A stretch of DNA of 64,000 bases from Nitrosopumilus sp. (GCA_965205675.1 OZ242186.1:1280001-1344000), one strand, 5' to 3'. Counted from the first letter of the stretch, positions 22,194 through 63,992 are shown. Notes: a model not told the origin generated them from the letters alone. Program-made: numbers and translations.

Positions 22194-23861
22194 GTGTTGA
22201 TGATGCAATTCTCCAAGGTATTCAAAAATTTGAGTCAAAAAATCGCAAGTACTCTAAAAAAAGATGCAAAGAAAAAAAACATTCCAGAAAAAAACATTCC
22301 AGAAAAAAACATTCCAGAGAAGAGCATTCCAGAGAAGAGCATTCCAGAGAAGAAGAACTCAAAAAAAGATACAAAAAAAGATACACCGCAAGAAAAATCC
22401 CTCTCGTATTCCTCTGTTAGACCTGCAAAGTACCTTATACAATACAAGGTAGGTGATGATGTAGTAGTTACAATATCTGAGGACATGCAGTACTGCGTAT
22501 ATGAGCCACAGTTCTCAGATGCTGCATCAAAATCCGCATATGACAGTATAATGTCATACAAGAGATTTACAAGGTATGATGGCAACGCGGTCTTTTCTGA
22601 GTTGTCCGTAGAGGAGATAATGAGTGAGGCAGAATCCGCTGCAACAGAACTTGGTCTTCTCGAAGAGTTTCTGAAAAATTACCGAACGTTTCAATACTAT
22701 ATCCGGCGCGATATCTTCGGGTTTGATGTTCTAAATGTACTGCTGCAAGACGAATCAAATCTTGAGGACATCACATGTTCAAATTACAATGATACGGTAG
22801 GTGTGGTTCACCGCAAATATCTCAGCTGGGGAGTCATGAGAACCACGATAAAATTTGACTCAAAAAAGCATATGGAGTCGCTGATGGAGAAGATGGCAAA
22901 CCGCGCTTACAAACATCTCTCTGATGCCACACCCATGGTTGACCTGCAGCTGGATAAAAAATACAGAATGTCGCTTGTAAAATCTGACGTGATATCGCCG
23001 CTGTCCCCTGCGCTATCCATACGAATAAAATCCCCTGACCCGATCACGATAAAAAATCTGCTTGACTCAAACACCATATCTCACAATACAGTTGCTGCAA
23101 TCTGGACTCTTTTGGATGTACGTGGTACGGGGCTTATTATTGGCGGCACAGGTTCAGGCAAAACCTCTACCCTTGGCGCCTTACTGCTGCTGATAAAAAA
23201 GACTGAGAAGATAATAACAATCGAGGACACTGGGGAAATTCAGATACCTCACACAGACTGGCTGCCATTAATGATTGATGCCCCCGTATCAACTGCCGGT
23301 TATTTTAAAAAATTTCAGGCAATTCTCAACACTTCGCTGCGACAGAGACCATACATGATCTCAGTGGGAGAGGTGCGAGGCGAATCAACAAAGATGCTCT
23401 TTGATGCAATATCTACAGGCCACTCCTCGATGTCATCCTTTCATGCATATGGTGCGTCAGGTGCAATCAATCGTATCATAGGGGAAATCGGTGTACCTGC
23501 CGGTTCTTTTACTGATCTTGGATTCATTTTATCAATGGGGGAAATAATAACAAAGCAGGGAATACTTGAGAGGCGATGCCTCTCCTTTGATGAGATAAGC
23601 TCAGATGGTCATGAGGTCTTTCTCAACAACCTTGGAGTGTACAATGCAGATACTGATTCTTTTGATAACAACTCGATTCCTTTTCTGTGTGAGAATTCCA
23701 AGAGGCTGCAGGCAGCAGTAGCCCGAGACGCATCAACTGAGATGGCATCAGACTTTGCACTACGAGTTGACCTGTTGCGGGAATGTCAAAAGCGGGCAGT
23801 CACCCAACACGAGACAGCAGAGATTCTATCCAAATATTATGAAAAGAAATATCAGCGATAG
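22194..23861 (+). CDS. Type IV pilus assembly ATPase (FlaI/TadA/VirB11 family)
   Basis: GGTGSGKTS, TIEDTGEI, LRQRP...VGEVRG, TGHSSMSSFHA. Confidence 0.95.
   Translation: MLMMQFSKVFKNLSQKIASTLKKDAKKKNIPEKNIPEKNIPEKSIPEKSIPEKKNSKKDTKKDTPQEKSLSYSSVRPAKYLIQYKVGDDVVVTISEDMQYCVYEPQFSDAASKSAYDSIMSYKRFTRYDGNAVFSELSVEEIMSEAESAATELGLLEEFLKNYRTFQYYIRRDIFGFDVLNVLLQDESNLEDITCSNYNDTVGVVHRKYLSWGVMRTTIKFDSKKHMESLMEKMANRAYKHLSDATPMVDLQLDKKYRMSLVKSDVISPLSPALSIRIKSPDPITIKNLLDSNTISHNTVAAIWTLLDVRGTGLIIGGTGSGKTSTLGALLLLIKKTEKIITIEDTGEIQIPHTDWLPLMIDAPVSTAGYFKKFQAILNTSLRQRPYMISVGEVRGESTKMLFDAISTGHSSMSSFHAYGASGAINRIIGEIGVPAGSFTDLGFILSMGEIITKQGILERRCLSFDEISSDGHEVFLNNLGVYNADTDSFDNNSIPFLCENSKRLQAAVARDASTEMASDFALRVDLLRECQKRAVTQHETAEILSKYYEKKYQR
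22275..22349 (+). repeat. 15-bp coding repeat x5 (K[NS]IPE)
   Basis: AAAAACATTCCAGAA / AAGAGCATTCCAGAG units. Confidence 0.9.
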
Positions 23862-26708: not shown

Positions 26709-26904
26709 GTTTTATGTGATTCCTGAAAAATATTTAAAGATAGCCCCACATTTTAAGCTTGGAAATGTATTTTAGCGATTAATTGTGAATCAAAGGGTGA
26801 CTAGAATTACATCATAAAGTACAGAGTTTTGGGAGAAGAGACTAATTGAGAGATTTATTGAAAGATCAGATCACGAAACATTTGAATTAAAAAATAAACT
26901 AGAT

Positions 26905-27318
26905 TTGTTCCAAAGTTTTGGCAGGTTTGTATCCGATCCAAATCTAGCCACAGCATTTGATAATCTGGTCACTAGAAAATTGATTTTGCAAATCAATCTT
27001 GGAAATTATATATTAAACAGTCATACATCTATCGAAGAAATTAGACGTATACTTCAGATGGAACCAATTCATTTTATGTCGGAACGAATGATGCCTGTTG
27101 AAAGTTATTTCAAGAATCATAAATTACAATTTAATTTTACTACTGATAAAAATAGTTGGCCTCATAGAGGAACGTATTATTGTTGCACACAGGAAGACGA
27201 CCCGTCTGTTTGGAAAATTATTGTTAGAACAAATCCTGCCAAATCCCCCACATTTTATAGTTTTGGGAGTTTTGATTCCGTGAAGTTATCGGGATCTAAC
27301 GCAGAGAGAGGGATTTGA
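26905..27318 (+). CDS. Hypothetical protein whose 3' end overlaps the tRNA
   Basis: 137-aa ORF in an AT-rich island. Confidence 0.4.
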   Translation: MFQSFGRFVSDPNLATAFDNLVTRKLILQINLGNYILNSHTSIEEIRRILQMEPIHFMSERMMPVESYFKNHKLQFNFTTDKNSWPHRGTYYCCTQEDDPSVWKIIVRTNPAKSPTFYSFGSFDSVKLSGSNAERGI

Positions 27319-27385
27319 ACCCCCGAGACCTATGACAGTCATCCACTCTTAAGGCGGACGCCCGACCAGACTAGGCGATCTCTGC
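27300..27385 (-). tRNA. Class II tRNA with anticodon TAA (nominally Leu) and Ser-like body
   Basis: GCAGAGA/TCTCTGC acceptor; GCCTAGTCTGGTCGGGC D arm; TCCGC-CTTAAGA-GTGGA anticodon arm; long variable arm; GGGGG-TTCAAAT-CCCTC T arm; discriminator G. Confidence 0.9.
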
Positions 27386-27666
27386 ACAAACTATAAAAAT
27401 AACGAAGATAGTAAAACGTTGGTTACTAATCCACCATGCAAAAACATGAGCGGAATAAATCCTATGACAGTCAAGTAACCATTTTTTAATTATTAATTTG
27501 GTTCAAACTGGCATTTTGTATGATTGTTTTCCATTTGTTATTGCCATCAACAATTATTCCCGCTATTTCTGCCGGAGTCTTTCCATTTAGAGATTGGTCT
27601 GGTCCCCTCTAGAGTAGGACCGGTAGCATACATACACTTTTCAGATAACTTGGGAGGCTTACCCTC

Positions 27667-27957
27667 ATGGTAAAGAGCAAATTCACATCAGCAGAAAAGT
27701 CAAGAGTGGTTTTAGAGTCACTAAACACAAACATTGCAACTGCAGAGTTGTGCAGAAAGTACAATATTCATCCACAGACATTCTACCAATGGAGGGAACG
27801 ATTTGTAGAAGGTGGCAAGGCATCATTAAATGGCACACCAAACGGAGATGTCTGCAAGAATCTGCAAAAGGAAAATGATTCCCTCAAAAAACTAATCGGC
27901 GAGATCACAATTGCCAATGACATTTTAAAAAAAACGTTGGAGAACCAGAAAAGATGA
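27667..27957 (+). CDS. IS3 transposase OrfA (HTH)
   Basis: AELCRKYNIHPQTFYQWR; slippery A8 run near 27927. Confidence 0.9.
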   Translation: MVKSKFTSAEKSRVVLESLNTNIATAELCRKYNIHPQTFYQWRERFVEGGKASLNGTPNGDVCKNLQKENDSLKKLIGEITIANDILKKTLENQKR

Positions 27958-28776
27958 CTGCAGTGAATCAACTGAACAAACACATCAGTTTGAACAAGTC
28001 ATTGTTATTAATTGGAGTCTCAAAATCCAAATGGTATTACTCAAAGTCACCAAGAAGGATTCAGACAGATCCTGCAGTAACTGATGTAGTTCAAAAGATT
28101 GGAAAACAAAGGCCAACTTATGGAACCAGACGCATGGCATCCCAAGTCTCAAGGGAACTGAACAAGCCTGTAAACAGAAAACAAATCAGAAGAATATTTC
28201 ACAAATTGGGCTGGATTGAGCCTAAAAAGACCAAAAATGACATCATCAAATCTGCCAGAACATTATTCAAGCCTGATGCACCAAACCAGTTGTGGCAGAC
28301 AGACATCACATATGTCTGGTGTGGGGTTGACAGATGGTGCTACTGCTTTAACGTGATTGATGCATTTAGCAGGAAATGGATTTGGCATTCATTTGATGTG
28401 GCAGCTCCAAAGAGCACTGCAATTGACAGCATCATTAATGCAGTAGCTACTGCAAAGCCTGATTGCACAAAACTGATTCTCAGAACTGACAACGGTTCGC
28501 AATACAACAGCCGAGATTTCAGACAAGCAGTTATTCTACTTGGAATAAGACATGAATTCATCTGGGCACCACACGCCAGAACAAAACGGACATGTCGAAT
28601 CATTCCACAAGACACTCAAGAAGGAATACTTGTGGAGGTACGAGTTTGCAAACTATCAGGAAGCCGAAGTTGCTCTAGAGAAAGCACGAATCGATTACAA
28701 TGGTTCCAGGATTCATTCAGCGTTAGGATACCTTACTCCTGATGAATTCATGGAGTTATGGGAGATGAAAACATAA
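27954..28776 (+). pseudogene. IS3 transposase OrfB (DDE), frameshifted near 28565
   Basis: WQTDITY, TDNGSQY; HTPEQNGHVESFHKTLK continues in another frame. Confidence 0.85.
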
Positions 28777-29454
28777 ATGAATCAGACTGTATGTAAAATA
28801 ATGCAAAAAGTGGTACTAAAAACAGGGGTCCACTCCAAGATCCATGCTTCTTTGAGAAATTGTAAAATGTCTGAAAGCCATCAAATAGAGGACTGTTCAT
28901 CTTTTTTATTCCCCTATATGCTACCTCACGATCCCTGATAGTACCGTTTAGTCTTTCCATTCTGTTGTTATTTTTATCTCCCTTTAGATGAATATGGCGT
29001 ATGTGTTCTGTCTTTTTTTGTAAATAATTTTTTTGACTGTATATTTAAAAAACAAATTGAAGACGTTAATCAAAAAGATTACCATAATAATCGACAACCC
29101 GGAATAGCTGCTTTTACTTTATTTGTCAAATTTGGTTGGATTCATGAAGTTAGCAGAAAAGGAAGACAGATTTTTTATCAAATTGATAAACCTGATGAAT
29201 ATTTGGATATAATAAATAAGAAAATTTTACTTTGTTCAATGTGTGGATTACCTACACCGGATAAATTTTGTAATCAGTGCAATACTCACATTTAGAAAAA
29301 GAAAATATTCTGACGACGGAATACACAGCAGAAGGGAATCGAGAGGAACCGGTCAGGCGGTTTGCAGATCTTCAAGTGCAATGACTGTAAAAGAAAATTT
29401 ACAACAAACCTTGAATTTTTCTTGCTTTAAATCCGTCTCACATCATATCTTTTA

Positions 29455-39596: not shown

Positions 39597-41438
39597 GTGT
39601 CTGCGAAATCAAAAAAGCCTGCAAAGTCATGGTCCCTTGATGCGCTAAACATACTGTATGCATCAGACAAGAACATAAACGGCACAACTGAGCTTGACTC
39701 GATTCTATCGCGGTACTGTGATGTGATAAACGGCGTCTCAGAACCATTAGTGATTGATATGGTCGCAGATACTGAACTGATGATGTTTCACAAGACCCAG
39801 AAACTGTGCAAATTCGACAAGGTAATATTTACCACGACACAGGACATGACGAGTCTCTTCACTGGGGCATCGTTTGGATACTCTCAAACAGATTCCCGGA
39901 AATGGGATATCCTCAAAGAGTATCCTGATTCATTGCTTCTTGCAGACGGGATGCACTGTAAAATGTATACCCTAACTAACATGCATTCCTCATTGCCTCC
40001 CGGCTGGGCATATGGTTTGTACTCTGATGCGGATTTTCTGCGAATTTTCATAAACCCCATTTCTGCTGCAAAACACCAAAATGTTATTAATTCACACAAG
40101 TCAGTCCAGAGAACAAAGAGCTCGGCTGAGGAGATGTATCAGGTAGATGATATTACAGAGATAAGAGACCGCGTGATGAGTCAAAAGACGGACAATCTGT
40201 TTTCAGTGACAATCAATGCCGGAATTCTCGGAGTTGACATGCAGACTCTTAGAAAAAAATGTGCTGCCTTTGAGATGATAGATGCCAAGAACAGAAACGG
40301 AATGTACTCTATGAAGTATGGTCAGTCAAAGTTTCTCAACGGCATGGGACAAAGAATGTTGATGTGCAAAAGCTCAATGCCTGCACTCGTGCCATTTCAT
40401 ACGTCGGAGCTAAACGAGGAAGGTGGAGTACTGATTGGAGAAAACACAAAGACTGCAAACCCAGTACAATGGAACATAAATCATAGGCTGAATCGTAATA
40501 CGGTAATTGCTGCTACTTCAGGCTCTGGAAAGACAACGCTTGCAATGCTTATCATTCACGCATTTGAAAGGATGTATCCTGATACGTTTATCTTTGTAAT
40601 TGATCCAGAGTCCGAATACAAGGCGTTATCAGATAATATGGGATTTCAATACATTAGCTATTCAAGCGGCACCAAGCTCGGATTTGATGTTTTTAAGATG
40701 GTTGCAGACCCGGTATCTGCTGCTGAGACACTCTGTGACGTACTAAATGTGCCACAGATAAACCGTGCAATGGTTTTACATGCCGCATCAAAGATTGCAA
40801 CAGATGAGGACCGAGACTTTTTCAAATTCTATGATGAGTTAAAGAATCTTGAATCAGGCAAGACAGATAATCTTGCATCAGAGTATTTTGGCATACTGGC
40901 ACATCCTCCATTTGATGAGCTGATTCGAGGCAGTCCCCCAAAAAACAACAAGATAGTACTGTCATTAAAAAACATCGGAAGTGCAGCCGGTTCTGTCCAG
41001 AGAATAATTACACAGATAGCACTAGCGTATGCGCTTGGCAAGTCTCTCTCGATGCCGAAGATGACACCAAAACTCTTCATGTTAGATGAGGTGTGGATGC
41101 TCTTACAGCATGATACTCTTGGCAACTACATCCAAAATCTCTCGCGTCGTGGACGAAAATACAACATCAACCTGATGCTTGCAAGCCAAAACATTGAGGA
41201 CATGACTGATAATCCCTCTGCAAGAAACGTGCTTGTAAATAGCGACACTGTCATGTTTTTGAGACAGTCTGAGGCTACACTGAAGGCACTTGTGGAGAAC
41301 TTTACCCTCTCATCTACTGCTGCAACTGATCTGATGAACCTCAAGCGCGGACAGGCAATCATAAAGTATGGCAGTCATATGGTGCCAGTGGATATTCTTC
41401 CCGACAAGGAGCAGCTAGAGATGTTTAGGGCACGATAA
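39597..41438 (+). CDS. virB4: VirB4-like conjugation ATPase
   Basis: NRNTVIAATSGSGKT, FVIDPESEY, FMLDEVW, SRRGRKY, ASQNIED. Confidence 0.88.
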   Translation: MSAKSKKPAKSWSLDALNILYASDKNINGTTELDSILSRYCDVINGVSEPLVIDMVADTELMMFHKTQKLCKFDKVIFTTTQDMTSLFTGASFGYSQTDSRKWDILKEYPDSLLLADGMHCKMYTLTNMHSSLPPGWAYGLYSDADFLRIFINPISAAKHQNVINSHKSVQRTKSSAEEMYQVDDITEIRDRVMSQKTDNLFSVTINAGILGVDMQTLRKKCAAFEMIDAKNRNGMYSMKYGQSKFLNGMGQRMLMCKSSMPALVPFHTSELNEEGGVLIGENTKTANPVQWNINHRLNRNTVIAATSGSGKTTLAMLIIHAFERMYPDTFIFVIDPESEYKALSDNMGFQYISYSSGTKLGFDVFKMVADPVSAAETLCDVLNVPQINRAMVLHAASKIATDEDRDFFKFYDELKNLESGKTDNLASEYFGILAHPPFDELIRGSPPKNNKIVLSLKNIGSAAGSVQRIITQIALAYALGKSLSMPKMTPKLFMLDEVWMLLQHDTLGNYIQNLSRRGRKYNINLMLASQNIEDMTDNPSARNVLVNSDTVMFLRQSEATLKALVENFTLSSTAATDLMNLKRGQAIIKYGSHMVPVDILPDKEQLEMFRAR

Positions 41439-43991
41439 ATGAACAATGCATGGGGTAACACGGTACTTGGGTATCTTCAGGACGGCAAGCTCTTATCGAT
41501 ACCAAATAAGATACGACAAAACTTTGCAATCTTTGGTGAGATAGGATCCGGAAAATCCTCCATACTGCGCATGATGATTTTACAAGACATTCAGGCTGGG
41601 CGCGGGTTTTTGATTGCAGAAAACCACGGTGAGCTCTCAAAGGAGATACTCTCAATGATTCCCCCAAAGGATTATCACAAAATAGTATACATCAGCCTCT
41701 CCTCACTGCGATTATGGGAGAAGACACTGAGATTCAATCCATTACGATGCGATAACATGTATGATTCGGGAATGGTTGCACTGACATTCACTGAATGTCT
41801 TGCGCGTGCGTTCAGTGACTCGTGGGGTGCAAGAGTTGATACGTGTGCCCGAAACGGTGCACTTGCAACAATTGGAACCGCATCGCCTACGATAGGCGTC
41901 ATGATGAATCTGCTTACAAACAAGGATTTCAGAGACGCGTTTGTTCCAAATATCATCAACAAGCATGCAAAGGACTTTTTCGTAGATGTCTATGACGTGC
42001 AGTATCCAAAGGAGGCAGGCGGTGTTGTCTTTAACAAGCTCAACAAGATGATGACGATTCCTGAGATGGATGCAATGTTTAACACTTCCGAATCCTCCGT
42101 TGACTTTGAGAAGATAATTGATGATGGAATGTATGTAGTCTTGGATTTTGGAGGAGGACTGCCAAATGACATGGTAAAGTTTTTGGGCAATGTGTTTATG
42201 CATCTCTTTTACACATCATATAAAAAAAGAGTCAAAAAACCCGATGGCACATATGACAGATTCAACCTGTATCTGGATGAGGTCCAGACATTCTCTCCAA
42301 ACATGGTACGGGAACTCTTCAACACGGTTCGAAAGTACGGCATCACAATGACTGTTGCAACGCAGTCCGTATCTGCACTAGATAAGGAGCTGGCAGACGA
42401 GATTGCAACCTTGTGTCGGGCCATTGCGTGCTTCAAGTGCGACACAAAGACTGCGACGCATCTAAAGTCCATACTGCCAACTACAGTAGAGCAGCAGCAG
42501 AAACTCTCATGGCATACATTTGCGTTTTACACCGGGGGAGACAAACCAAAAAACGCTGTTGCCTCTACAAGACACATGAGCATACCTCCAAGATGGGAGC
42601 AGGCGGCACGACACAGCGTTGATGAGCTTGGAAAATTCGTATCCCTTGAGAGATATTATAACCAGTCAGGTGCAGCAGCAGAGGTGCTGCTATCTCCGCT
42701 GGAGTTTGGAATACTAAACTATCTGAGAATGGAGAATCGAGACGTCTCTCGCCAGGAGATAACTGATGTCATGACTCGAAGGTATGCCACAGATGCAAGG
42801 ACTGTCGCATCTGCATTAAATGATACGCTAATCTCATCATACCAGTTTGTACGCAAAAATGACATTACAGCAGATGACGGGGATGAAAAGTTTGAGTCAA
42901 GATATGCCATTACTAAAACTGCCATAAAGATGGTCTTCTCAAAGGCCGCCGCCGGACGCCGTGCAGGAGGAGACCTCCATCTGTCTGTAATATTTATGAT
43001 AATGGATATTCAGATGAATCTCGGATGCTACTGCGTTCCAGACAACGGTGCAGGCGCTGCAAAGCATGCAGACCTGCTTGTATTTGAACCTGAAAAGATA
43101 AAAAATGAAAAGGGTCTGGATGTTGCGTATAATCCAGGCAAGTGGTCTGAGAAAACCATTGCACTTGAAGTCGAGACTGCTCCCGGCAAACACTGGGATC
43201 AAGTGATTACAAACTTTGAGAAGAACAAAAAGCAGGGATTCTTTGTGTGGTTTGTAGTGTTTACATCAGAGGAGAAACGGGCATTAATCAACACCTTTTC
43301 AGATGCAGATATTTCACCTGATGAGTATTCTGTAACTGTGATGAATGAGGGAGTCGTACTGGCAGCAGATACTGACTCTGAGAGTGTCAGGGGGTTTAGC
43401 AAAATACAGAGTGCAATATTTTCTGCCCTTTTTAATGCAGGCGGTTCCGCAAAGGAGCAATACCTCATAGATAACACCTGGAAGTATGAGCCAAAAAAAG
43501 TCATTGAGGAGTTGCACAAATTTGAGGTCAAGGGAGAACTGTTGTGCCACCAGCAGATGATGCAAGACCCATCAAATCCCGATGAACCAGATGAGAAAAA
43601 GATGATCAAGGTGTGGAGACTCAAAGGGTATGATGAGTCAAAGGCAAAGTCTGAGAAGACAGGCCCTAAGGGACTGCCAGCAGCTAGCGATATATTCTCA
43701 GTTGCCACACCGCAACCCGAACCACTACAGCACCAGGTATCACAAGAAGAAAAGGAACAAGAGAACAATAACAATTCGGAATCCTCTCACTCTGAGAAGA
43801 AGGAGAAGGCAAAGGATGAGGGTGAATATGCGGGTCTAACTGAGGCTATGATGCTATCAATATTCCAAGATTGCCAAAAAAACGACAGAGAAGAAGAGAT
43901 GGACAGAATCCGAGACGTGTTAAAATCCCGCGGGTTCTGCATCAGGAAACGCAACGGTGAGTTCTTTGTAGCAAGGCTGCCAAAGGCATGA
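41439..43991 (+). CDS. VirD4/TraG-like coupling ATPase with C-terminal wHTH and nuclease-like domains
   Basis: GEIGSGKS, FNPL, LYLDEVQ, VRKYGI...ATQS; later GGDLH...ADLLV...IALEVET. Confidence 0.82.
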   Translation: MNNAWGNTVLGYLQDGKLLSIPNKIRQNFAIFGEIGSGKSSILRMMILQDIQAGRGFLIAENHGELSKEILSMIPPKDYHKIVYISLSSLRLWEKTLRFNPLRCDNMYDSGMVALTFTECLARAFSDSWGARVDTCARNGALATIGTASPTIGVMMNLLTNKDFRDAFVPNIINKHAKDFFVDVYDVQYPKEAGGVVFNKLNKMMTIPEMDAMFNTSESSVDFEKIIDDGMYVVLDFGGGLPNDMVKFLGNVFMHLFYTSYKKRVKKPDGTYDRFNLYLDEVQTFSPNMVRELFNTVRKYGITMTVATQSVSALDKELADEIATLCRAIACFKCDTKTATHLKSILPTTVEQQQKLSWHTFAFYTGGDKPKNAVASTRHMSIPPRWEQAARHSVDELGKFVSLERYYNQSGAAAEVLLSPLEFGILNYLRMENRDVSRQEITDVMTRRYATDARTVASALNDTLISSYQFVRKNDITADDGDEKFESRYAITKTAIKMVFSKAAAGRRAGGDLHLSVIFMIMDIQMNLGCYCVPDNGAGAAKHADLLVFEPEKIKNEKGLDVAYNPGKWSEKTIALEVETAPGKHWDQVITNFEKNKKQGFFVWFVVFTSEEKRALINTFSDADISPDEYSVTVMNEGVVLAADTDSESVRGFSKIQSAIFSALFNAGGSAKEQYLIDNTWKYEPKKVIEELHKFEVKGELLCHQQMMQDPSNPDEPDEKKMIKVWRLKGYDESKAKSEKTGPKGLPAASDIFSVATPQPEPLQHQVSQEEKEQENNNNSESSHSEKKEKAKDEGEYAGLTEAMMLSIFQDCQKNDREEEMDRIRDVLKSRGFCIRKRNGEFFVARLPKA

Positions 43992-44409: not shown

Positions 44410-44802
44410 ATGCAGTTCCTGCTACCTTTTTTTATCTCTTTTTTGGCATCAATTAATGCCGTAATGCTAAATACCGTACTTGGAGGATATGGAGTGTACG
44501 TTGCACTAGGGATTTTTCTTGCAGCATTTGCATGTGATTTTGCATCCACGGTATCTGTAAAAAATGCAAAGTCTCTTGAAGCAAATCCTGTCGTGCGAAG
44601 ACTGGGAAACCATTTCAAATTTCATACCTCGCTGGCTATCATAGGTGTGATTAGTATGACTATTCAGGTCCTAGTGTATGTTATTTTTGATACTGCAATA
44701 GTGTCTTATTTTATTGCATCCCTGCATCTTTATGCAATACTCTCAAACCTTCACGTCAGAAAATATTCTTCCTTAAAATCAAAAGGAATACAGAACATGT
44801 GA
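44410..44802 (+). CDS. Small polytopic membrane protein (DUF5658-like)
   Basis: DFAST...EANPVV motif, four TMs. Confidence 0.55.
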   Translation: MQFLLPFFISFLASINAVMLNTVLGGYGVYVALGIFLAAFACDFASTVSVKNAKSLEANPVVRRLGNHFKFHTSLAIIGVISMTIQVLVYVIFDTAIVSYFIASLHLYAILSNLHVRKYSSLKSKGIQNM

Positions 44803-45305
44803 TGATAATAAGTATACAAAACGTTGTTGCAAATGCACAAATTACAAGATGTGACGAAGATACCGTTCTCAAAAAAATACCAGAGTCAGAATACCATCCA
44901 AACGGATTTCCGGCAATTGGAATCCGGAAGAAACGTGTGAAAATCTGGCTTTACAAATCAGGCAAGATAGTCAGCGCAGGCGCCAAATCAAGAGAGATTG
45001 CAATAGGTGTAATAATGGATACAATACAGAGGCTCTCAAGTCTTGGATTTGCAATCAAGGTAAGGTCTGCTCCCAGAATATCACTAGTTGTGGCAAACAT
45101 CAAACTTGACGGGTATCTGCAACGCTCAAAACTGCAAAGCATGACTGGAGTCTATTCCAACGAAAAGTTTCAGGCAGACACATTTCATTTTAAGGAGTAT
45201 AAGACAAACGTGCGCATATTCAAAAACAAAAAGATTGGGATGAGTGCACCCTCAGTTGAGGCAATAGTCTTTATGGTAAAAAAACTGCAAGAATGCACGG
45301 TATGA
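44799..45305 (+). CDS. tbp: Divergent TATA-box-binding protein
   Basis: ISIQNVVA...EYHPNGFPAI...LYKSGKIVSAGAKS repeat 1; degenerate repeat 2 (SLVVA...YSNEKF...IFKNKKI). Confidence 0.88.
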   Translation: MMIISIQNVVANAQITRCDEDTVLKKIPESEYHPNGFPAIGIRKKRVKIWLYKSGKIVSAGAKSREIAIGVIMDTIQRLSSLGFAIKVRSAPRISLVVANIKLDGYLQRSKLQSMTGVYSNEKFQADTFHFKEYKTNVRIFKNKKIGMSAPSVEAIVFMVKKLQECTV

Positions 45306-56604: not shown

Positions 56605-57696
56605 GTGACGACATCGCCACACTACGGACTAGGACCAGAGACAATCTGCATACTTGCAGCATCTGAGAGAAGCACCGCCCTCAGTTATAGGGCGAAGTAT
56701 ATCATGACGCGAAAAATACAAAGCAAAAATATTCAAAACAATGCACAAAATCAAAAACTGCTCTTGGCAAAAAACTATGTCGAACAAGAACTAGAAACCC
56801 AAGGGTATAGAGGTCGCATCAAGTATGATATGACCAACAAAGCTCTGGTCCAATACAGGACCAAGGAGGGAACAATAGCCGTCATCAAAGAAGGCAAACT
56901 GCACATCTTTGAGATGCCAGTCAAAAAGTTCAAGGGGGCACTTCCATTGGAGACAAATCCAGTGGATATGGATTCCATCAGGACAGAAAAGGCAACATGC
57001 TGTAAAAGATGCCATCAATGGAAAAAGACTGCAAACATAACCCGCTGTCCTTGCGGAGGATATCTGGTTCCAAGAAAGAGATTCTCAGTAGATGCTGTAG
57101 AGTCCTGGGATGAGGAAGTCCTCGAGATAGAGTTTGCCAAAAAAGACATCATCCTAGCAAAGAAGACTGATAGGGTACTAGCTCACAAACCAAAGAGATC
57201 AACCCCTAAAGGAATCACCGCAAACCTATCTGGAATGTATGCAGTAGATACTCCGCTAGATACCCACAAGGAAGAGTTGTTGCTAGTTACAGACGGTGAG
57301 GATGTAAGAACCATTCGAGTCAGACCCATATCATCATGCAGTCTGATATTTGTAGCGGCGATAGATTCTGGAATATCTGATGAACAAAAATTTGAGATAC
57401 TCTCAGAATGCAGAAAGGATGATTCTGAGGACAGACAGTTCCTATCTGAGACAGATAGATTTGTCAGAGAACACATCCCACAAAAGGCAAAGAACATGGT
57501 GGATTCATGGAATGAACCATCATATCCTTTCAAACTTGGCAGAAAAGGCAAGACATCAAAGAGAGCCACAAGATCACTCAAGAGAATGGACAAGAGTCAT
57601 GCCTCAGAGAAAACAAGTCTCAAAAACGGAAAAAAGCCACAGTTCTTTGCAAGCTCAGTACCAGCAGCACAGACTCTCAAGAATGAGTCAAAGTAA
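56605..57696 (+). CDS. Array gene A copy 1: basic Zn-finger hypothetical protein with variant N-terminus (likely ATG 56704)
   Basis: CKRC...RCPCGG. Confidence 0.75.
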   Translation: MTTSPHYGLGPETICILAASERSTALSYRAKYIMTRKIQSKNIQNNAQNQKLLLAKNYVEQELETQGYRGRIKYDMTNKALVQYRTKEGTIAVIKEGKLHIFEMPVKKFKGALPLETNPVDMDSIRTEKATCCKRCHQWKKTANITRCPCGGYLVPRKRFSVDAVESWDEEVLEIEFAKKDIILAKKTDRVLAHKPKRSTPKGITANLSGMYAVDTPLDTHKEELLLVTDGEDVRTIRVRPISSCSLIFVAAIDSGISDEQKFEILSECRKDDSEDRQFLSETDRFVREHIPQKAKNMVDSWNEPSYPFKLGRKGKTSKRATRSLKRMDKSHASEKTSLKNGKKPQFFASSVPAAQTLKNESK

Positions 57697-57836
57697 ATGT
57701 CACTACAAGAAGAGTTTGTGACAGAAAAACATCTTTAAGAAAATAAAAACCACAGCACACCCCCAACTTTTTTTTATGTGACCTGACAATCCTCTCAAAT
57801 CCAATATCATACTATGACACCTGACAGGCAGATTGG

Positions 57837-58304
57837 ATGTGGAGATGGTACAGATGCTTGCAGCATCATACAGAAACAATGAACAAAAAAACAACAAACA
57901 AAGTAAGAACCAGTCTAGTACGAAAACAAAACGTGATATTTGTAGCAATGGTAGCAGTTGGGTTATCCCTAACTGTCATGAGCCAGCTTACAGATTCGCG
58001 ACTGCTAAGTGAAGGCATAGCCTTTATTATAGTTGGATTCGTAGGAATGTTAATGTCTTGGACTACGATGGATGTTGGTGCCAGTATCAAAGAAGCAATA
58101 CATGATGTTGGCAGAAAAAACCTAGCCGCATTGGAATCCATTGCATCTTCTCAAAAAGAGATGGGCAAATCTCTCAAAGAGATGGACACGTCTCTCAAAG
58201 AGATGGACACGTCTCTCAAAGAGATAGCATCCTCTCAGAAGGAGATCAAAGACATTCTAGGTACACATACTACAATTCTAAAGAACCTAGAGAAAAAAGA
58301 CTGA
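57837..58304 (+). CDS. Array gene B copy 1: two-TM + heptad coiled coil
   Basis: 5 variable heptads; real start probably the second Met. Confidence 0.75.
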   Translation: MWRWYRCLQHHTETMNKKTTNKVRTSLVRKQNVIFVAMVAVGLSLTVMSQLTDSRLLSEGIAFIIVGFVGMLMSWTTMDVGASIKEAIHDVGRKNLAALESIASSQKEMGKSLKEMDTSLKEMDTSLKEIASSQKEIKDILGTHTTILKNLEKKD

Positions 58305-58550
58305 GTTTTCAAAAACCCACAATATTTTTTTGACTGAGTCATGCACTCCAAACCGACATTATTTGTAGCAATACAAATCGACTCAGCGAGTTGGTGTGAG
58401 ATGTGTAAAGAAAATCAAAATGATTTTTGAAATTATTCCCACAGAGTTGTAACGAATTATTTCCAAAAGGGAATAGCTCAACCCAACTCTCATGACGGGA
58501 ATCGTTCTACTGGAAACGTTATTTCAGAATAACAGGAGGTTGAACCATTT

Positions 58551-59543
58551 ATGGTCCAACAAAATATTACAAGTGCAAGTATCAAAAATGCACAAAATCA
58601 AAAACTGCTCTTGGCAAAAAACTATGTCGAACAAGAACTAGAAACCCAAGGGTATAGAGGTCGCATCAAGTATGATATGACCAACAAAGCTCTGGTCCAA
58701 TACAGGACCAAGGAGGGAACAATAGCCGTCATCAAAGAAGGCAAACTGCACATCTTTGAGATGCCAGTCAAAAAGTTCAAGGGGGCACTTCCATTGGAGA
58801 CAAATCCAGTGGATATGGATTCCATCAGGACAGAAAAGGCAACATGCTGTAAAAGATGCCATCAATGGAAAAAGACTGCAAACATAACCCGCTGTCCTTG
58901 CGGAGGATATCTGGTTCCAAGAAAGAGATTCTCAGTAGATGCTGTAGAGTCTTGGGATGAAGAGGTCCTCGAGATAGAGTTTGCCAAAAAAGACATCATC
59001 CTAGCAAAGAAGACTGATAGGGTACTATCTCACAAACCAAAGAGATCAACCCCTAAAGGAATCACCGCAAACCTATCTGGAATGTATGCAGTAGATACTC
59101 CGCTAGATACCCACAAGGAAGAGTTGTTGCTAGTTACAGACGGTGAGGATGTAAGAACCATTCGAGTCAGACCCATATCATCATGCAGTCTGATATTTGT
59201 AGCGGCGATAGATTCTGGAATATCTGATGAACAAAAATTTGAGATACTCTCAGAATGCAGAAAGGATGATTCTGAGGACAGACAGTTCCTATCTGAGACA
59301 GATAGATTTGTCAGAGAACACATCCCACAAAAGGCAAAGAACATGGTGGATTCATGGAATGAACCATCATATCCTTTCAAACTTGGCAGAAAAGGCAAGA
59401 CATCAAAGAGAGCCACAAGATCACTCAAGAGAATGGACAAGAGTCATGCCTCAGAGAAAACAAGTCTCAAAAACGGAAAAAAGCCACAGTTCTTTGCAAG
59501 CTCAGTACCAGCAGCACAGACTCTCAAGAATGAGTCAAAGTAA
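58551..59543 (+). CDS. Array gene A copy 2
   Basis: 330 aa; AGGAGGT SD upstream. Confidence 0.8.
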   Translation: MVQQNITSASIKNAQNQKLLLAKNYVEQELETQGYRGRIKYDMTNKALVQYRTKEGTIAVIKEGKLHIFEMPVKKFKGALPLETNPVDMDSIRTEKATCCKRCHQWKKTANITRCPCGGYLVPRKRFSVDAVESWDEEVLEIEFAKKDIILAKKTDRVLSHKPKRSTPKGITANLSGMYAVDTPLDTHKEELLLVTDGEDVRTIRVRPISSCSLIFVAAIDSGISDEQKFEILSECRKDDSEDRQFLSETDRFVREHIPQKAKNMVDSWNEPSYPFKLGRKGKTSKRATRSLKRMDKSHASEKTSLKNGKKPQFFASSVPAAQTLKNESK

Positions 59544-59683
59544 ATGTCACTGCAAGAAGAGTTTGTGACAGAAAAACATCTTTAAGAAAATAAAAACCAC
59601 AGCACACCCCCAACTTTTTTTTATGTGACCTGACAATCCTCTCAAATCCAATATCATACTATGACACCTGACAGGCAGATTGG

Positions 59684-60214
59684 ATGTGGAGATGGTACAG
59701 ATGCTTGCAGCATCATACAAAAATCATGAAAGAGGAAACCACAAACAAAGTAAAAACCAGTCTAGTACGAAAACAAAACGTGATATTTGTAGCAATGGTA
59801 GCAGTTGGGTTATCCCTAACTGTCATGAGCCAGCTTACAGATTCGCGACTGCTAAGTGAAGGCATAGCCTTTATTATAGTTGGATTCGTAGGAATGTTAA
59901 TGTCTTGGACTACGATGGATGTTGGTGCCAGTATCAAAGAAGCAATACATGATGTTGGCAGAAAAAACCTAGCCGCATTGGAATCCATTGCAAAATCTCA
60001 GAAGGAGATAGCATCTTCTCAAAAAGAGATAGCATCATCTCAAAAAGAGATAGCATCATCTCAAAAAGAGATAGCATCATCTCAAAAAGAGATAGCATCA
60101 TCTCAAAAAGAGATGGACACGTCTCTCAAGGAGATAGCATCCTCTCAGAATGAGATCAAAGACATTCTAGGTACACATACTACAATTCTAAAGAACCTAG
60201 AGAAAAAAGACTGA
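59684..60214 (+). CDS. Array gene B copy 2
   Basis: 8 variable heptads. Confidence 0.75.
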   Translation: MWRWYRCLQHHTKIMKEETTNKVKTSLVRKQNVIFVAMVAVGLSLTVMSQLTDSRLLSEGIAFIIVGFVGMLMSWTTMDVGASIKEAIHDVGRKNLAALESIAKSQKEIASSQKEIASSQKEIASSQKEIASSQKEIASSQKEMDTSLKEIASSQNEIKDILGTHTTILKNLEKKD

Positions 60215-60460
60215 GTTTTCAAAAACCCACAATATTTTTTTGACTGAGTCATGCACTCCAAACCGACATTATTTGTAGCAATACAAATCGACTCAGCGAG
60301 TTGGTGTGAGATGTGTAAAGAAAATCAAAATGATTTTTGAAATTATTCCCACAGAGTTGTAACGAATTATTTCCAAAAGGGAATAGCTCAACCCAACTCT
60401 CATGACGGGAATCGTTCTACTGGAAACGTTATTTCAGAATAAAAGGAGGTTGAACCATTT

Positions 60461-61453
60461 ATGGTCCAACAAAATATTACAAGTGCAAGTATCAAAAATG
60501 CACAAAATCAAAAACTGCTCTTGGCAAAAAACTATGTCGAACAAGAACTAGAAACCCAAGGGTACAGAGGTCGCATCAAGTATGATATGACCAACAAAGC
60601 TCTGGTCCAATACAGGACCAAGGAGGGAACAATAGCCGTCATCAAAGAAGGCAAACTGCACATCTTTGAGATGCCAGTCAAAAAGTTCAAGGGGGCACTT
60701 CCATTGGAGACAAATCCAGTGGATATGGATTCCATCAGGACAGAAAAGGCAACATGCTGTAAAAGATGCCATCAATGGAAAAAGACTGCAAACATAACCC
60801 GCTGTCCTTGCGGAGGATATCTGGTTCCAAGAAAGAGATTCTCAGTAGATGCTGTAGAGTCTTGGGATGAAGAGGTCCTCGAGATAGAGTTTGCCAAAAA
60901 AGACATCATCCTAGCAAAGAAGACTGATAGGGTACTATCTCACAAACCAAAGAGATCAACCCCTAAAGGAATCACCGCAAACCTATCTGGAATGTATGCA
61001 GTAGATACTCCGCTAGATACCCACAAGGAAGAGTTGTTGCTAGTTACAGACGGTGAGGATGTAAGAACCATTCGAGTCAGACCCATATCATCATGCAGTC
61101 TGATATTTGTAGCGGCGATAGATTCTGGAATATCTGATGAACAAAAATTTGAGATACTCTCAGAATGCAGAAAGGATGATTCTGAGGACAGACAGTTCCT
61201 ATCTGAGACAGATAGATTTGTCAGAGAACACATCCCACAAAAGGCAAAGAACATGGTGGATTCATGGAATGAACCATCATATCCTTTCAAACTTGGCAGA
61301 AAAGGCAAGACATCAAAGAGAGCCACAAGATCACTCAAGAGAATGGACAAGAGTCATGCCTCAGAGAAAACAAGTCTCAAAAACGGAAAAAAGCCACAGT
61401 TCTTTGCAAGCTCAGTACCAGCAGCACAGACTCTCAAGAATGAGTCAAAGTAA
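60461..61453 (+). CDS. Array gene A copy 3
   Basis: Protein identical to copy 2. Confidence 0.8.
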   Translation: MVQQNITSASIKNAQNQKLLLAKNYVEQELETQGYRGRIKYDMTNKALVQYRTKEGTIAVIKEGKLHIFEMPVKKFKGALPLETNPVDMDSIRTEKATCCKRCHQWKKTANITRCPCGGYLVPRKRFSVDAVESWDEEVLEIEFAKKDIILAKKTDRVLSHKPKRSTPKGITANLSGMYAVDTPLDTHKEELLLVTDGEDVRTIRVRPISSCSLIFVAAIDSGISDEQKFEILSECRKDDSEDRQFLSETDRFVREHIPQKAKNMVDSWNEPSYPFKLGRKGKTSKRATRSLKRMDKSHASEKTSLKNGKKPQFFASSVPAAQTLKNESK

Positions 61454-61593
61454 ATGTCACTGCAAGAAGAGTTTGTGACAGAAAAACATCTTTAAGAAAA
61501 TAAAAACCACAGCACACCCCCAACTTTTTTTTATGTGACCTGACAATCCTCTCAAATCCAATATCATACTATGACACCTGACAGGCAGATTGG

Positions 61594-62082
61594 ATGTGGA
61601 GATGGTACAGATGCTTGCAGCATCATACAAAAATCATGAAAGAGGAAACCACAAACAAAGTAAAAACCAGTCTAGTACGAAAACAAAACGTGATATTTGT
61701 AGCAATGGTAGCAGTTGGGTTATCCCTAACTGTCATGAGCCAGCTTACAGATTCGCGACTGCTAAGTGAAGGCATAGCCTTTATTATAGTTGGATTCGTA
61801 GGAATGTTAATGTCTTGGACTACGATGGATGTTGGTGCCAGTATCAAAGAAGCAATACATGATGTTGGCAGAAAAAACCTAGCCGCATTGGAATCCATTG
61901 CAAAATCTCAGAAGGAGATAGCATCTTCTCAAAAAGAGATGGGCAAATCTCTCAAAGAGATGGACACGTCTCTCAAAGAGATGGACACGTCTCTCAAGGA
62001 GATAGCATCCTCTCAGAATGAGATCAAAGACATTCTAGGTACACATACTACAATTCTAAAGAACCTAGAGAAAAAAGACTGA
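61594..62082 (+). CDS. Array gene B copy 3
   Basis: 6 variable heptads. Confidence 0.75.
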   Translation: MWRWYRCLQHHTKIMKEETTNKVKTSLVRKQNVIFVAMVAVGLSLTVMSQLTDSRLLSEGIAFIIVGFVGMLMSWTTMDVGASIKEAIHDVGRKNLAALESIAKSQKEIASSQKEMGKSLKEMDTSLKEMDTSLKEIASSQNEIKDILGTHTTILKNLEKKD

Positions 62083-62328
62083 GTTTTCAAAAACCCACAA
62101 TATTTTTTTGACTGAGTCATGCACTCCAAACCGACATTATTTGTAGCAATACAAATCGACTCAGCGAGTTGGTGTGAGATGTGTAAAGAAAATCAAAATG
62201 ATTTTTGAAATTATTCCCACAGAGTTGTAACGAATTATTTCCAAAAGGGAATAGCTCAACCCAACTCTCATGACGGGAATCGTTCTACTGGAAACGTTAT
62301 TTCAGAATAAAAGGAGGTTGAACCATTT

Positions 62329-63321
62329 ATGGTCCAACAAAATATTACAAGTGCAAGTATCAAAAATGCACAAAATCAAAAACTGCTCTTGGCAAAAAAC
62401 TATGTCGAACAAGAACTAGAAACCCAAGGGTACAGAGGTCGCATCAAGTATGATATGACCAACAAAGCTCTGGTTCAATACAGGACCAAGGAGGGAACAA
62501 TAGCCGTCATCAAAGAAGGCAAACTGCACATCTTTGAGATGCCGGTCAAAAAGTTCAAGGGGGCACTTCCATTGGAGACAAATCCAGTGGATATGGATTC
62601 CATCAGGACAGAAAAGGCAACATGCTGTAAAAGATGCCATCAATGGAAAAAGACTGCAAACATAACCCGCTGTCCTTGCGGAGGATATCTGGTTCCAAGA
62701 AAGAGATTCTCAGTAGATGCTGTAGAGTCCTGGGATGAGGAAGTCCTCGAGATAGAGTTTGCCAAAAAAGACATCATCCTAGCAAAGAAGACTGATAGGG
62801 TACTATCTCACAAACCAAAGAGATCAACCCCTAAAGGAATCACCGCAAACCTATCTGGAATGTATGCAGTAGATACTCCGCTAGATACCCACAAGGAAGA
62901 GTTGTTGCTAGTTACAGACGGTGAGGATGTAAGAACCATTCGAGTCAGACCCATATCATCATGCAGTCTGATATTTGTAGCGGCGATAGATTCTGGAATA
63001 TCTGATGAACAAAAATTTGAGATACTCTCAGAATGCAGAAAGGATGATTCTGAGGACAGACAGTTCCTATCTGAGACAGATAGATTTGTCAGAGAACACA
63101 TCCCACAAAAGGCAAAGAACATGGTGGATTCATGGAATGAACCATCATATCCTTTCAAACTTGGCAGAAAAGGCAAGACATCAAAGAGAGCCACAAGATC
63201 ACTCAAGAGAATGGACAAGAGTCATGCCTCAGAGAAAACAAGTCTCAAAAACGGAAAAAAGCCACAGTTCTTTGCAAGCTCAGTACCAGCAGCACAGACT
63301 CTCAAGAATGAGTCAAAGTAA
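62329..63321 (+). CDS. Array gene A copy 4
   Basis: Protein identical to copy 2; synonymous SNPs. Confidence 0.8.
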   Translation: MVQQNITSASIKNAQNQKLLLAKNYVEQELETQGYRGRIKYDMTNKALVQYRTKEGTIAVIKEGKLHIFEMPVKKFKGALPLETNPVDMDSIRTEKATCCKRCHQWKKTANITRCPCGGYLVPRKRFSVDAVESWDEEVLEIEFAKKDIILAKKTDRVLSHKPKRSTPKGITANLSGMYAVDTPLDTHKEELLLVTDGEDVRTIRVRPISSCSLIFVAAIDSGISDEQKFEILSECRKDDSEDRQFLSETDRFVREHIPQKAKNMVDSWNEPSYPFKLGRKGKTSKRATRSLKRMDKSHASEKTSLKNGKKPQFFASSVPAAQTLKNESK

Positions 63322-63461
63322 ATGTCACTACAAGAAGAGTTTGTGACAGAAAAACATCTTTAAGAAAATAAAAACCACAGCACACCCCCAACTTTTTTTT
63401 ATGTGACCTGACAATCCTCTCAAATCCAATATCATACTATGACACCTGACAGGCAGATTGG

Positions 63462-63992
63462 ATGTGGAGATGGTACAGATGCTTGCAGCATCATACAGAA
63501 ACAATGAACAAAAAAACAACAAACAAAGTAAGAACCAGTCTAGTACGAAAACAAAACGTGATATTTGTAGCAATGGTAGCAGTTGGGTTATCCCTAACTG
63601 TCATGAGCCAGCTTACAGATTCGCGACTGCTAAGTGAAGGCATAGCCTTTATTATAGTTGGATTCGTAGGAATGTTAATGTCTTGGACTACGATGGATGT
63701 TGGTGCCAGTATCAAAGAAGCAATACATGATGTTGGCAGAAAAAACCTAGCCGCATTGGAATCCATTGCAAAATCTCAGAAGGAGATAGCATCATCTCAA
63801 AAAGAGATAGCATCATCTCAAAAAGAGATAGCATCATCTCAAAAAGAGATAGCATCATCTCAAAAAGAGATGGACACGTCTCTCAAGGAGATAGCATCCT
63901 CTCAGAATGAGATCAAAGACATTCTAGGTACACATACTACAATTCTAGAAAAGCATACTACAATTCTAAAGAACCTAGAGAAAAAAGACTGA
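63462..63992 (+). CDS. Array gene B copy 4
   Basis: 7 variable heptads plus a duplicated HTTIL heptad. Confidence 0.75.
   Translation: MWRWYRCLQHHTETMNKKTTNKVRTSLVRKQNVIFVAMVAVGLSLTVMSQLTDSRLLSEGIAFIIVGFVGMLMSWTTMDVGASIKEAIHDVGRKNLAALESIAKSQKEIASSQKEIASSQKEIASSQKEIASSQKEMDTSLKEIASSQNEIKDILGTHTTILEKHTTILKNLEKKD

Follow-up and report, generated by a model that had tools for sequence, protein, structure and literature searches.

A serine-type tRNA with a leucine anticodon carried by an IS6-family insertion sequence within a conjugative island of Nitrosopumilus

What is a transfer RNA (tRNA) that pairs a leucine anticodon with a serine-type body doing on a mobile element of an ammonia-oxidising archaeon? 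The question is raised by a single tRNA gene, here called X, at positions 27300-27385 of a 64,000-nt window (G000:C1:1280001-1344000) from a Nitrosopumilus-type genome, G000, that consists of a single contig of 2.01 Mb. Positions given without the prefix G000 are those of the window. X encodes an intact class II tRNA with the anticodon UAA and descends from the tRNA-Ser(UGA) lineage. It is the passenger of an insertion sequence (IS) of the IS6 type, which itself splits a gene of an integrative and conjugative element (ICE) of about 77 kb, a setting that goes beyond what the original prediction for this DNA had described. As judged from its sequence, the chances are about even that X is, or recently was, a functional and serine-accepting mobile tRNA that would mistranslate UUA codons if expressed.

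The gene itself shows no sign of damage. A single minus-strand tRNA, assigned as Leu(taa) at 27299-27386, is all that ARAGORN reports for the window, and Rfam RF00005 aligns over its full length (model positions 1-71) to 27385-27300 (-) with 49.3 bits (E 1.6e-07; the gathering score is 29), the sole Rfam match across the 64 kb. Read from the sequence, the acceptor stem is GCAGAGA/UCUCUGC and is followed by the discriminator G73. The D arm has a 4-bp stem and a 9-nt loop (AGUCUGGUC) and lacks the CAAAGG-type loop of tRNA-Leu, and the anticodon stem is UCCGC/GUGGA, including C31-G39 and G30.U40. The anticodon loop is CUUAAGA, with UAA at 27351-27349. The long variable arm forms a 4-bp stem of its own with a 6-nt loop and carries a 2-nt loop insert relative to the serine model described below. 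The T arm is standard with the T loop UUCAAAU, and U8, A14, G18G19 and G53-C61 are all present as checked by eye. The intact cloverleaf, TAA anticodon, G73, short D-loop, C31-G39 and long variable arm of the original prediction are therefore all borne out; the prediction gave no strand, which is the minus one. Contigs from three public runs (two samples of one study, possibly the source of the assembly itself) cover X with zero differing letters and all read TAA at the anticodon, so the TAA anticodon is no assembly slip at the contig level.

The body of X is that of a serine tRNA. Compared with the genome's own tRNA-Ser(UGA) (G000 1773058-1773143), its acceptor stem is identical except at position 7 (A-U in X, G.U in Ser), the two tRNAs agree where the D arm begins, along the complete T arm and at the discriminator, and the first 15 nt differ by one base as counted by eye. 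In a BLAST search against the genome, the last 28 nt at the 3' end of X, counted to 2 nt beyond the discriminator, are identical to G000 1773117-1773144. The two anticodon loops differ solely at position 35, X being the G35A form, just as had been claimed in describing the X loop as one base from a serine CTTGAGA (CUUGAGA in the genome's tRNA-Ser(UGA)). When X was compared by BLAST with 301 genomes of the family, the 30 best loci comprised X itself, one UAA homolog (in genome G299), 26 tRNA-Ser(UGA) and two tRNA-Ser(GCU), with no tRNA-Leu among them (genomes G093, G092, G258, G077, G206, G228 and G260 enter only the 286/301 tally of this search).

As a stand-in for the isotype models of tRNAscan-SE, covariance models were built from 21 tRNA-Ser(UGA/GCU) and 25 tRNA-Leu(UAG/CAG) of the family, the training sequences being untrimmed ARAGORN coordinates whose 0-3 extra flank bases fall into insert or terminal columns. 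X scores 85.7 bits with the serine model and 53.5 with the leucine model. Both controls sort as expected, the true Ser(UGA) scoring 108.9 and 56.9 bits, respectively, and the genome's Leu(UAG) 69.2 and 113.4. Because the serine model leans on the UGA isoacceptor, the evident origin of X, the margin of 32 bits is a generous one and its direction is clear. Together with nearest loci that, apart from X and its UAA homolog, are all tRNA-Ser, this supports the earlier proposal of a Ser-type body and settles the isotype comparison in favour of serine, on a tRNA whose anticodon is UAA rather than a serine anticodon (NGA or GCU).

The positions that usually separate the two identities agree. The discriminator is G in 21/21 aligned family tRNA-Ser and A in 25/25 aligned family tRNA-Leu, and it is G in X. 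All 25 family tRNA-Leu have a Leu-type D arm with a 3-bp stem and a 13-nt CAAA-type loop; X has a 4-bp stem and a 9-nt loop instead. According to the part of PMC9976931 used here, G73 is a strong determinant for bacterial-type and archaeal seryl-tRNA synthetase (SerRS), followed by G30-C40, G73 of H. volcanii tRNA-Ser is an antideterminant against leucyl-tRNA synthetase (LeuRS), and serine identity is independent of the anticodon. The view of G73 as typical of tRNA-Ser and adverse to LeuRS, on which the original prediction relied, agrees with that source.

Is X the normal reader of UUA in this genome? A canonical tRNA-Leu(UAA) with A73 exists elsewhere, and X is thus an extra copy. The canonical gene lies at G000 305310-305431 (+) and was found by a T-arm scan at about 305.4 kb; ARAGORN missed it, even in intron mode. 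Two inferred introns interrupt it, one within the D arm (305336-305357) and one that follows position 37 (305372-305386), with boundaries that were placed by eye and then tested directly. Spliced, it is an 85-nt cloverleaf in which 23/23 pairs are standard, with the loop CUUAAGA, A73 and a Leu-type D loop, and its 3' exon recurs in many genomes of the family. A further Leu-like match at G000 1936027-1936101(-) was also missed by ARAGORN.

Codon alignments tell the same story. In 36 ortholog pairs between G000 and 80 kb of G299, 290 TTA codons could be aligned, of which 175 face a different partner codon; that partner encodes Leu at 147 positions and Ser at 6. When island genes were compared with paralogs elsewhere in the genome, 47 aligned TTA codons faced L 29 times, I 9 times, V 3 times and S not once. 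The search for serine at TTA codons thus returned a clear dominance of leucine. Because TTA aligns as Leu in core and island genes alike and the canonical tRNA-Leu(UAA) is present, there has been no change of the genetic code: as judged from these alignments the bulk of UUA decoding is leucine, and low-level ambiguity would be invisible to them. TTA is used 12.0 times per 1000 codons in the open reading frames (ORFs) of the island and 29.3 times in those elsewhere, a frequency about 2.4 times as high in the host.

How X came to lie where it does can be read from its surroundings. The order of parts is island gene, inverted repeat, tRNA X, a leader of about 100 nt and the 3' end of a transposase gene, and X therefore sits inside an IS, past the stop codon of the transposase gene and before the right inverted repeat. 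A 25-nt motif directly 3' of X has 16 matches in 4/5 genomes tested (reversed control, 0). In genome G410 the same motif closes several copies of a transposase-bearing element, 38 nt past the stop codon, and the sequences of these copies diverge immediately beyond it. The ORF of the G410 copy matches Pfam DDE_Tnp_IS240 (PF13610; E 4.8e-14) and so belongs to the IS6 family, and the window copy keeps about 100 final transposase codons, in two pieces, near-identical in translation to those of G410. An inverted left copy of the repeat is seen at another locus (L377); in the window copy the left end is missing (truncated at about 29040). The carrier is thus an IS6-family (IS240-type) copy that is now dead, its transposase gene being 5'-truncated and split by an IS3-family element. 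The left end of that IS3-family element is marked by a step up in contig depth from 27595 on and by loose contig ends at 27594/27595, and its right end was read by eye. The island gene that the carrier interrupts has a paralog of 234 aa at G000 1061610-1062311, and its N-terminal part ends at 27270, two bases short of the tip of the repeat.

The IS3-family element shows a summed contig depth in the thousands in the three runs, compared with about 6-13 in its flanks, and some of the contigs over it differ from the window at many positions. Such depths mean that this element or its close relatives are very abundant in those samples.

The original prediction had also considered that X might be a drifting relic of an integration site. 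This candidate is rejected: X lies within the IS6-type element and adjoins its inverted repeat, a BLAST search with X and 200 nt on each side finds no direct repeat of its 3' end in the genome except at distant tRNA-Ser genes, and the nearest integrase is 57 kb away, at the far end of the island.

Relatives of X are few. An unbiased search, in which a 361-nt stretch spanning the tRNA was compared by BLAST with 151 genomes of the genus, finds X-like sequence beyond G000 only in G299, G401 and G403 (4/151 genomes in all), every other match to the tRNA region being an ordinary tRNA-Ser. A 17-mer scan of genome contigs, which required the UAA loop and is biased for that reason, returns three Nitrosopumilus sp. 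records with X-like sequence. The X-like copy of G299, about 190 bp from the aEF-2 gene, has an A2.G71 mismatch and has lost G19; the copy of G401, next to an M1 aminopeptidase gene, is 5'-truncated within the D arm; and of two copies in G403 one has an insertion in the T/acceptor region and the other is a 5'-truncated 3' fragment. UAA is found in every copy that retains the anticodon loop.

A second intact member, Y, was found in G299 by a search for a T loop followed by the motif, which also recovered the copies above. Its acceptor stem is GUAGUGG/CCACUAC and its anticodon stem CUUGU/ACGGG, with the loop UUUAAAA, G73, the same upstream TTTATAGTTT and the same inverted repeat as X. The tip of the right repeat is GGTTCTGTAAAGTT in the Y copy and GATTCCGTGAAGTT in the X copy, as compared by eye with the motifs that a review gives for IS6 terminal repeats (15-20 bp, GG tips, cTGTt/caaa; PMC7986276, seen in part). 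Y scores 66.0 bits with the serine model and 51.1 with the leucine model, and it keeps UAA and G73 despite its different acceptor and anticodon stems. When X, Y, two X-like copies and tRNA-Ser(UGA) are aligned, 94.4% of cells pair and 10/25 pairs have changed on both sides; the same pairing is reached by 0/500 shuffles, and slid controls give 1-4. Because the compensatory changes exceed those of the shuffled and slid controls, the X/Y lineage has been under a tRNA-type constraint.

The repeat motif at Y (L245/L260, in G299) is flanked by a 9-nt inverted repeat, CATATTCAG / CTGAATATG. ORFs near Y match DUF5678 and, weakly, PrgI (E 0.0014, below the cut-off), a hint of another conjugative element.

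Viral and metagenome scans yielded no X homolog. A 17-mer that allowed any base (N) at position 35 matched 13 stretches of viral DNA and at least 117 of metagenome DNA; the DNA of 80 loci was taken, and a BLAST comparison of 130 loci with the 361-nt X stretch produced just two matches of 25-35 nt. In viral contigs, a pattern combining the D arm and the loop gave 83 stretches with one tRNA, and that tRNA has A73.

The leader between the transposase stop codon and the tRNA is itself unusual. It is closed by GGTTAC...GTAACC and holds a same-sense copy, 10-14 nt long, of the tRNA's own variable arm, as well as both strands of the tRNA's anticodon stem around an AT-rich loop. The variable-arm copy tracks each lineage's own tRNA in four lineages: it is GACTGTCATAGG in G000, GACTGTCATGAG in G401, GATCGTGAATGG in the X-like copy of G299 and GTCGAGTAGG in Y. 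The loci compared were window 27386-27485, L047, L245, L376 and L377, of which the last two are leader-only copies beside which ARAGORN finds no tRNA. RNAalifold on three leaders shows little covariation beyond the invariant outer stem. TATA-like runs lie in the leader at about -31..-23 and -14..-7, as read by eye. The match between leader and tRNA may reflect gene conversion, a tRNA mimic or a guide-like role.

X is accompanied by a second accessory family with a Ser-like body, this one bearing the Phe anticodon GAA. G000 has three clear class II tRNAs of this kind and one diverged one, all with GAA and G73, and the island of X contains one of them. The family occurs in 14/151 genomes of the genus, in up to four tandem copies (loci L215-L241). 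Its loop UGAAAA is invariant in 20/20 aligned sequences and corresponds to a Ser(GGA) loop changed by G35A, G73 has a potential pairing partner in the C at position -1 in 18/20, and the stems covary (counted on acceptor and D-stem pairs only, the RNAalifold consensus being implausible in the variable region). The serine model scores above the leucine model by 9-17 bits, and the contexts resemble mobile elements. Since two independent Ser-like families carry A35, pure accident becomes less likely.

ARAGORN also reports a 'Leu(aag)' at G000 419548-419619(-) and a 'Phe(gaa)' at 541136-541279(-), which are near-identical 72-nt tRNA-like pieces starting GGGCCTGTAGC. One of these is tandemly duplicated, and they may be partial duplicates at element borders.

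If X works as a tRNA, it would be transcribed from its own TATA-like upstream elements or together with the transposase mRNA and then processed. The single SerRS, to which the anticodon does not matter, would load it with serine; charging would rest on G73, the Ser-type long variable arm and D arm, and the Ser(UGA)-type acceptor stem, and G73 would at the same time bar LeuRS from X. At UUA codons, and perhaps at UUG, Ser-charged X would be a competitor of the genuine tRNA-Leu(UAA), resulting in low-level substitution of serine for leucine. The genome has a single match to the SerRS N-domain (Seryl_tRNA_N), at 285759-286079 and far from the island. No extra synthetase is encoded with X, as a dedicated mistranslation module would have, and none is needed because SerRS ignores the anticodon.

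Several observations weigh against a functional, serine-accepting X. It has G30.U40, not the G30-C40 of Y and tRNA-Ser(UGA). Its carrier IS is defective, and no copy that combines an intact transposase with the tRNA turned up in the 151 genus genomes searched. The other copies amount to one intact gene (Y), two decayed and two 5'-truncated ones, and with most of them decayed or truncated the gene is evidently often not maintained. The retention of UAA in X and Y alone is not statistically compelling. Finally, as read by eye, the best TATA-like run sits just 7-14 nt before the mature 5' end, and that at the usual distance is weak.

X may instead be a decaying relic, a silent or uncharged leftover of an IS-carried tRNA-Ser copy that is by chance still intact in this genome and has no present function. 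I regard this as a serious rival, if on balance somewhat improbable. The truncated and split carrier fits it, as do the mismatched X-like copy of G299 that lost G19, the insertion in G403, the 5'-truncated copies of G401 and G403, and the rarity of a family confined to 4/151 genus genomes and missing from the viral and metagenome stretches. Against it, X is free of defects in its stems and conserved positions although the neighbourhood underwent IS3 insertion and truncation; the many compensatory differences between X and Y likewise argue for a long tRNA-type constraint on the lineage. X could also work for the IS at the RNA level, whether by marking processing or punctuation sites in the transposase transcript, as a tRNA mimic or as part of a guide-like RNA, with the anticodon incidental. 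A tRNA that follows the transposase stop after about 100 nt in the same orientation, the leader's copies of the lineage's own variable arm and anticodon stem in four lineages, and the leader-only copies are all consistent with such a role. Against it, IS6 elements are not known to use an RNA in their mechanism, the transposase being described as generally their sole gene (PMC7986276, in part), most copies of this IS type have neither leader nor tRNA, and the three leaders show little covariation; an IS-serving RNA is quite unlikely.

Could X instead be a genuine additional tRNA-Leu(UAA), adding to the capacity for UUA decoding or standing in for a host tRNA that has been cleaved? The anticodon, a loop identical to the canonical CUUAAGA and a class II shape common to tRNA-Leu would suit this, but X has the G73 that is A in all 25 family tRNA-Leu and is reported as an antideterminant against archaeal LeuRS (PMC9976931, in part), its D arm is Ser-type, and the leucine model falls 32 bits under the serine model. 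I consider a leucine acceptor very improbable. The earlier suggestion of escape from an anticodon nuclease, read as X standing in for a cut tRNA-Leu, is unsupported because G73 argues against leucylation. A genetic-code change in which UUA is read as serine, in the organism or in the island, has the existence of a Ser-type tRNA with UAA as its sole support; it is refuted for bulk decoding by the canonical tRNA-Leu(UAA) and by the TTA alignments, and its probability is close to nil. A Ser-type tRNA that accepts serine, or recently did so, is the explanation I favour.

The island that surrounds the carrier is a block of co-directional plus-strand genes of about 77 kb, from about G000 1248359 to window 45305, with X in its interior on the opposite strand. 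On its left side lie aEF-2, then an IS66 transposase and then a tyrosine-recombinase ORF (G000 1248359-1250032). The interior encodes a ParE toxin, a ParB/MT-A70 methylase, TFIIB and MCM homologs, a methylase with a Type III restriction enzyme, the T2SSE pilus ATPase and a BsuBI/Eco57I-type restriction-modification fusion (two restriction-modification systems in all). The pair of VirB4 and VirD4 ATPases together with an integrase identifies the island as an ICE, and its gene set matches that of thaumarchaeal ICEs, whose median size is 64 kb (PMC6563490, in part). Its borders, aEF-2/IS66 on the left and past the TBP gene on the right, are inferred from gene content and strand only.

Beyond the island, window 56605-63992 and its continuation to about G000 1380000 hold gene pairs in tandem, repeated about every 1.9 kb, with ORFs of about 330 aa and 160 aa. 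The array has a strong AT skew of about 0.26, and related pieces lie near the X-like tRNA of G299.

Features of the X locus, its island and the GAA family (window positions unless marked G000)
Feature	Position	Strand	Basis or remark
Interrupted island gene, N-terminal part	26818..27270	+	Residues 1-153 align to paralog, E 6.5e-16
Right inverted repeat of IS6-type element, sense TAGATCCCGATAACTTCACGGAATC	27272..27298	-	Outer tip 27272; dispersed repeat
tRNA X, intact class II, anticodon UAA	27300..27385	-	ARAGORN, Rfam, covariance models, contigs
Leader between transposase stop and X	27386..27485	-	Unit alignment, RNAalifold, leader-only copies
IS6-family (IS240-type) transposase, last 36 codons and stop	27486..27594	-	Translation ...KTPAEIAGIIVDGNNKWKTIIQNASLNQINN* matches G410 copy
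IS3-family insertion splitting the IS6-type transposase gene	27595..28838, ends approximate	+	Pfam HTH_Tnp_1, rve
IS3-family orfA	27667-27957	+	Pfam
IS3-family orfB	27954-28742	+	Pfam
Upstream transposase remnant, 5'-truncated, about 65 residues	28839..29040	-	Translation ...TEHIRHIHLKGDKNNNRMERLNGTIRDREVAYRGIKKMNSPLFDGFQTFYNFSKKHGS matches G410 copy
Interrupted island gene, C-terminal part	29047..29205	+	tblastn, paralog residues 182-234, 36% identity, E 3.3e-06
Pilus/secretion ATPase (T2SSE)	22194..23861	+	Pfam PF00437, E 6.5e-29
VirB4-like conjugation ATPase	39597..41438	+	Pfam P-loop_TraG E 3.9e-15, DUF87, AAA_10
VirD4/TraG-like coupling protein	41439..43991	+	Pfam TraG-D_C E 5.4e-05, T4SS-DNA_transf E 4e-04
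TBP homolog, last co-directional island gene seen	44799..45305	+	Pfam TBP, E 4e-12
GAA-family tRNA	G000 1261574-1261656	-	
GAA-family tRNA	G000 1794331-1794418	+	
GAA-family tRNA	G000 1858414-1858502	+	
GAA-family tRNA, diverged	G000 533584-533670	-	

How does X compare with tRNAs whose anticodon and identity are known to disagree? The sources in this paragraph and the next are cited from the parts seen. The human tRNA-Ser-AGA-2-3 with G35A (anticodon AAA) as its sole change in the anticodon loop is a SerRS substrate that inserts serine at UUN-box (Phe) codons (PMC12993449, PMC9956149), and the X loop equals the Ser(UGA) loop with the same change. The human tRNA is a chromosomal population variant with measured mistranslation, whereas X is archaeal, addresses a Leu codon, is borne on an IS and is known from sequence alone; unlike the human variant, X also differs from tRNA-Ser(UGA) throughout the anticodon stem and variable arm. 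Anticodon mutants of yeast tRNA-Ser mistranslate as well (PMC9976931). The nev-tRNAs of nematodes are class II tRNAs with Gly or Ile anticodons that are charged with leucine according to their body and decode in vitro (PMC3333845). They share with X a conserved class II form and an anticodon at odds with the body, but they are Leu-derived, eukaryotic and chromosomal, with expression and charging shown, whereas X stems from a tRNA-Ser and rides on an archaeal mobile element. Bacterial tRNA-ProX, with Ala, Asn or Thr anticodons set against proline identity, is toxic or conditionally useful in E. coli (PMC10404621) and resembles X as a natural prokaryotic mismatch of anticodon and identity. It lies in operons with a dedicated ProRSx isoform, whereas the genome of X has one SerRS N-domain match.

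The carrier resembles known IS6 members in its IS240-type DDE transposase and, as far as a comparison by eye shows, in its short terminal repeat of the GGTTCTGT..AAGTT kind, and it resembles transporter IS (tIS) in having a passenger between the transposase gene and the right end. It differs from them in that the passenger is a tRNA, and the left end and target duplication of the X carrier are lost. For one IS6 member in ISfinder, ISDsp3, a passenger that encodes a hypothetical protein is reported, and the part of the review seen makes no mention of a tRNA passenger (PMC7986276). A literature search turned up no paper on an IS with a tRNA passenger, which is not proof of absence. The island, about 77 kb of co-directional genes, has the integrase, the VirB4/VirD4 pair and the pilus ATPase in common with thaumarchaeal ICEs. 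For those ICEs, tRNA genes are described as targets of integration rather than cargo (PMC6563490), whereas here the tRNA is interior and on an IS.

tRNAs whose anticodon conflicts with their charging identity are rare, and they are raw material for codon reassignment and regulated mistranslation. The citable cases are eukaryotic (human tRNA-Ser G35A and the nev-tRNAs) or bacterial (tRNA-ProX), and X would be an archaeal one. With a transposable element as its carrier and a conjugative island around that, X offers a mistranslating tRNA a possible route of horizontal spread. The setting also offers a testable system, with one SerRS, two tRNA families (UAA and the better conserved GAA) and codons of which an AT-rich genome makes very frequent use. 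It is even conceivable, if rather doubtful on present sequence data, that Nitrosopumilus mobile elements carry expressed, Ser-charged tRNAs that G35A has moved into the UUN box (UAA on an IS6-type transporter IS, GAA on ICE-like elements). Such tRNAs would impose Leu/Phe-to-Ser mistranslation more heavily on the AT-rich host proteome than on the GC-richer elements, with the leader acting as a mimic or guide that controls or targets the module. If true, archaea would have their first mobile mistranslation module in this set of Ser-charged UUN-box tRNAs, and a tRNA would be on record for the first time as the passenger of an IS. Even if the tRNAs are silent, an IS6-type element with an RNA-gene passenger, and with a leader that tracks the tRNA's own sequence, is documented here.

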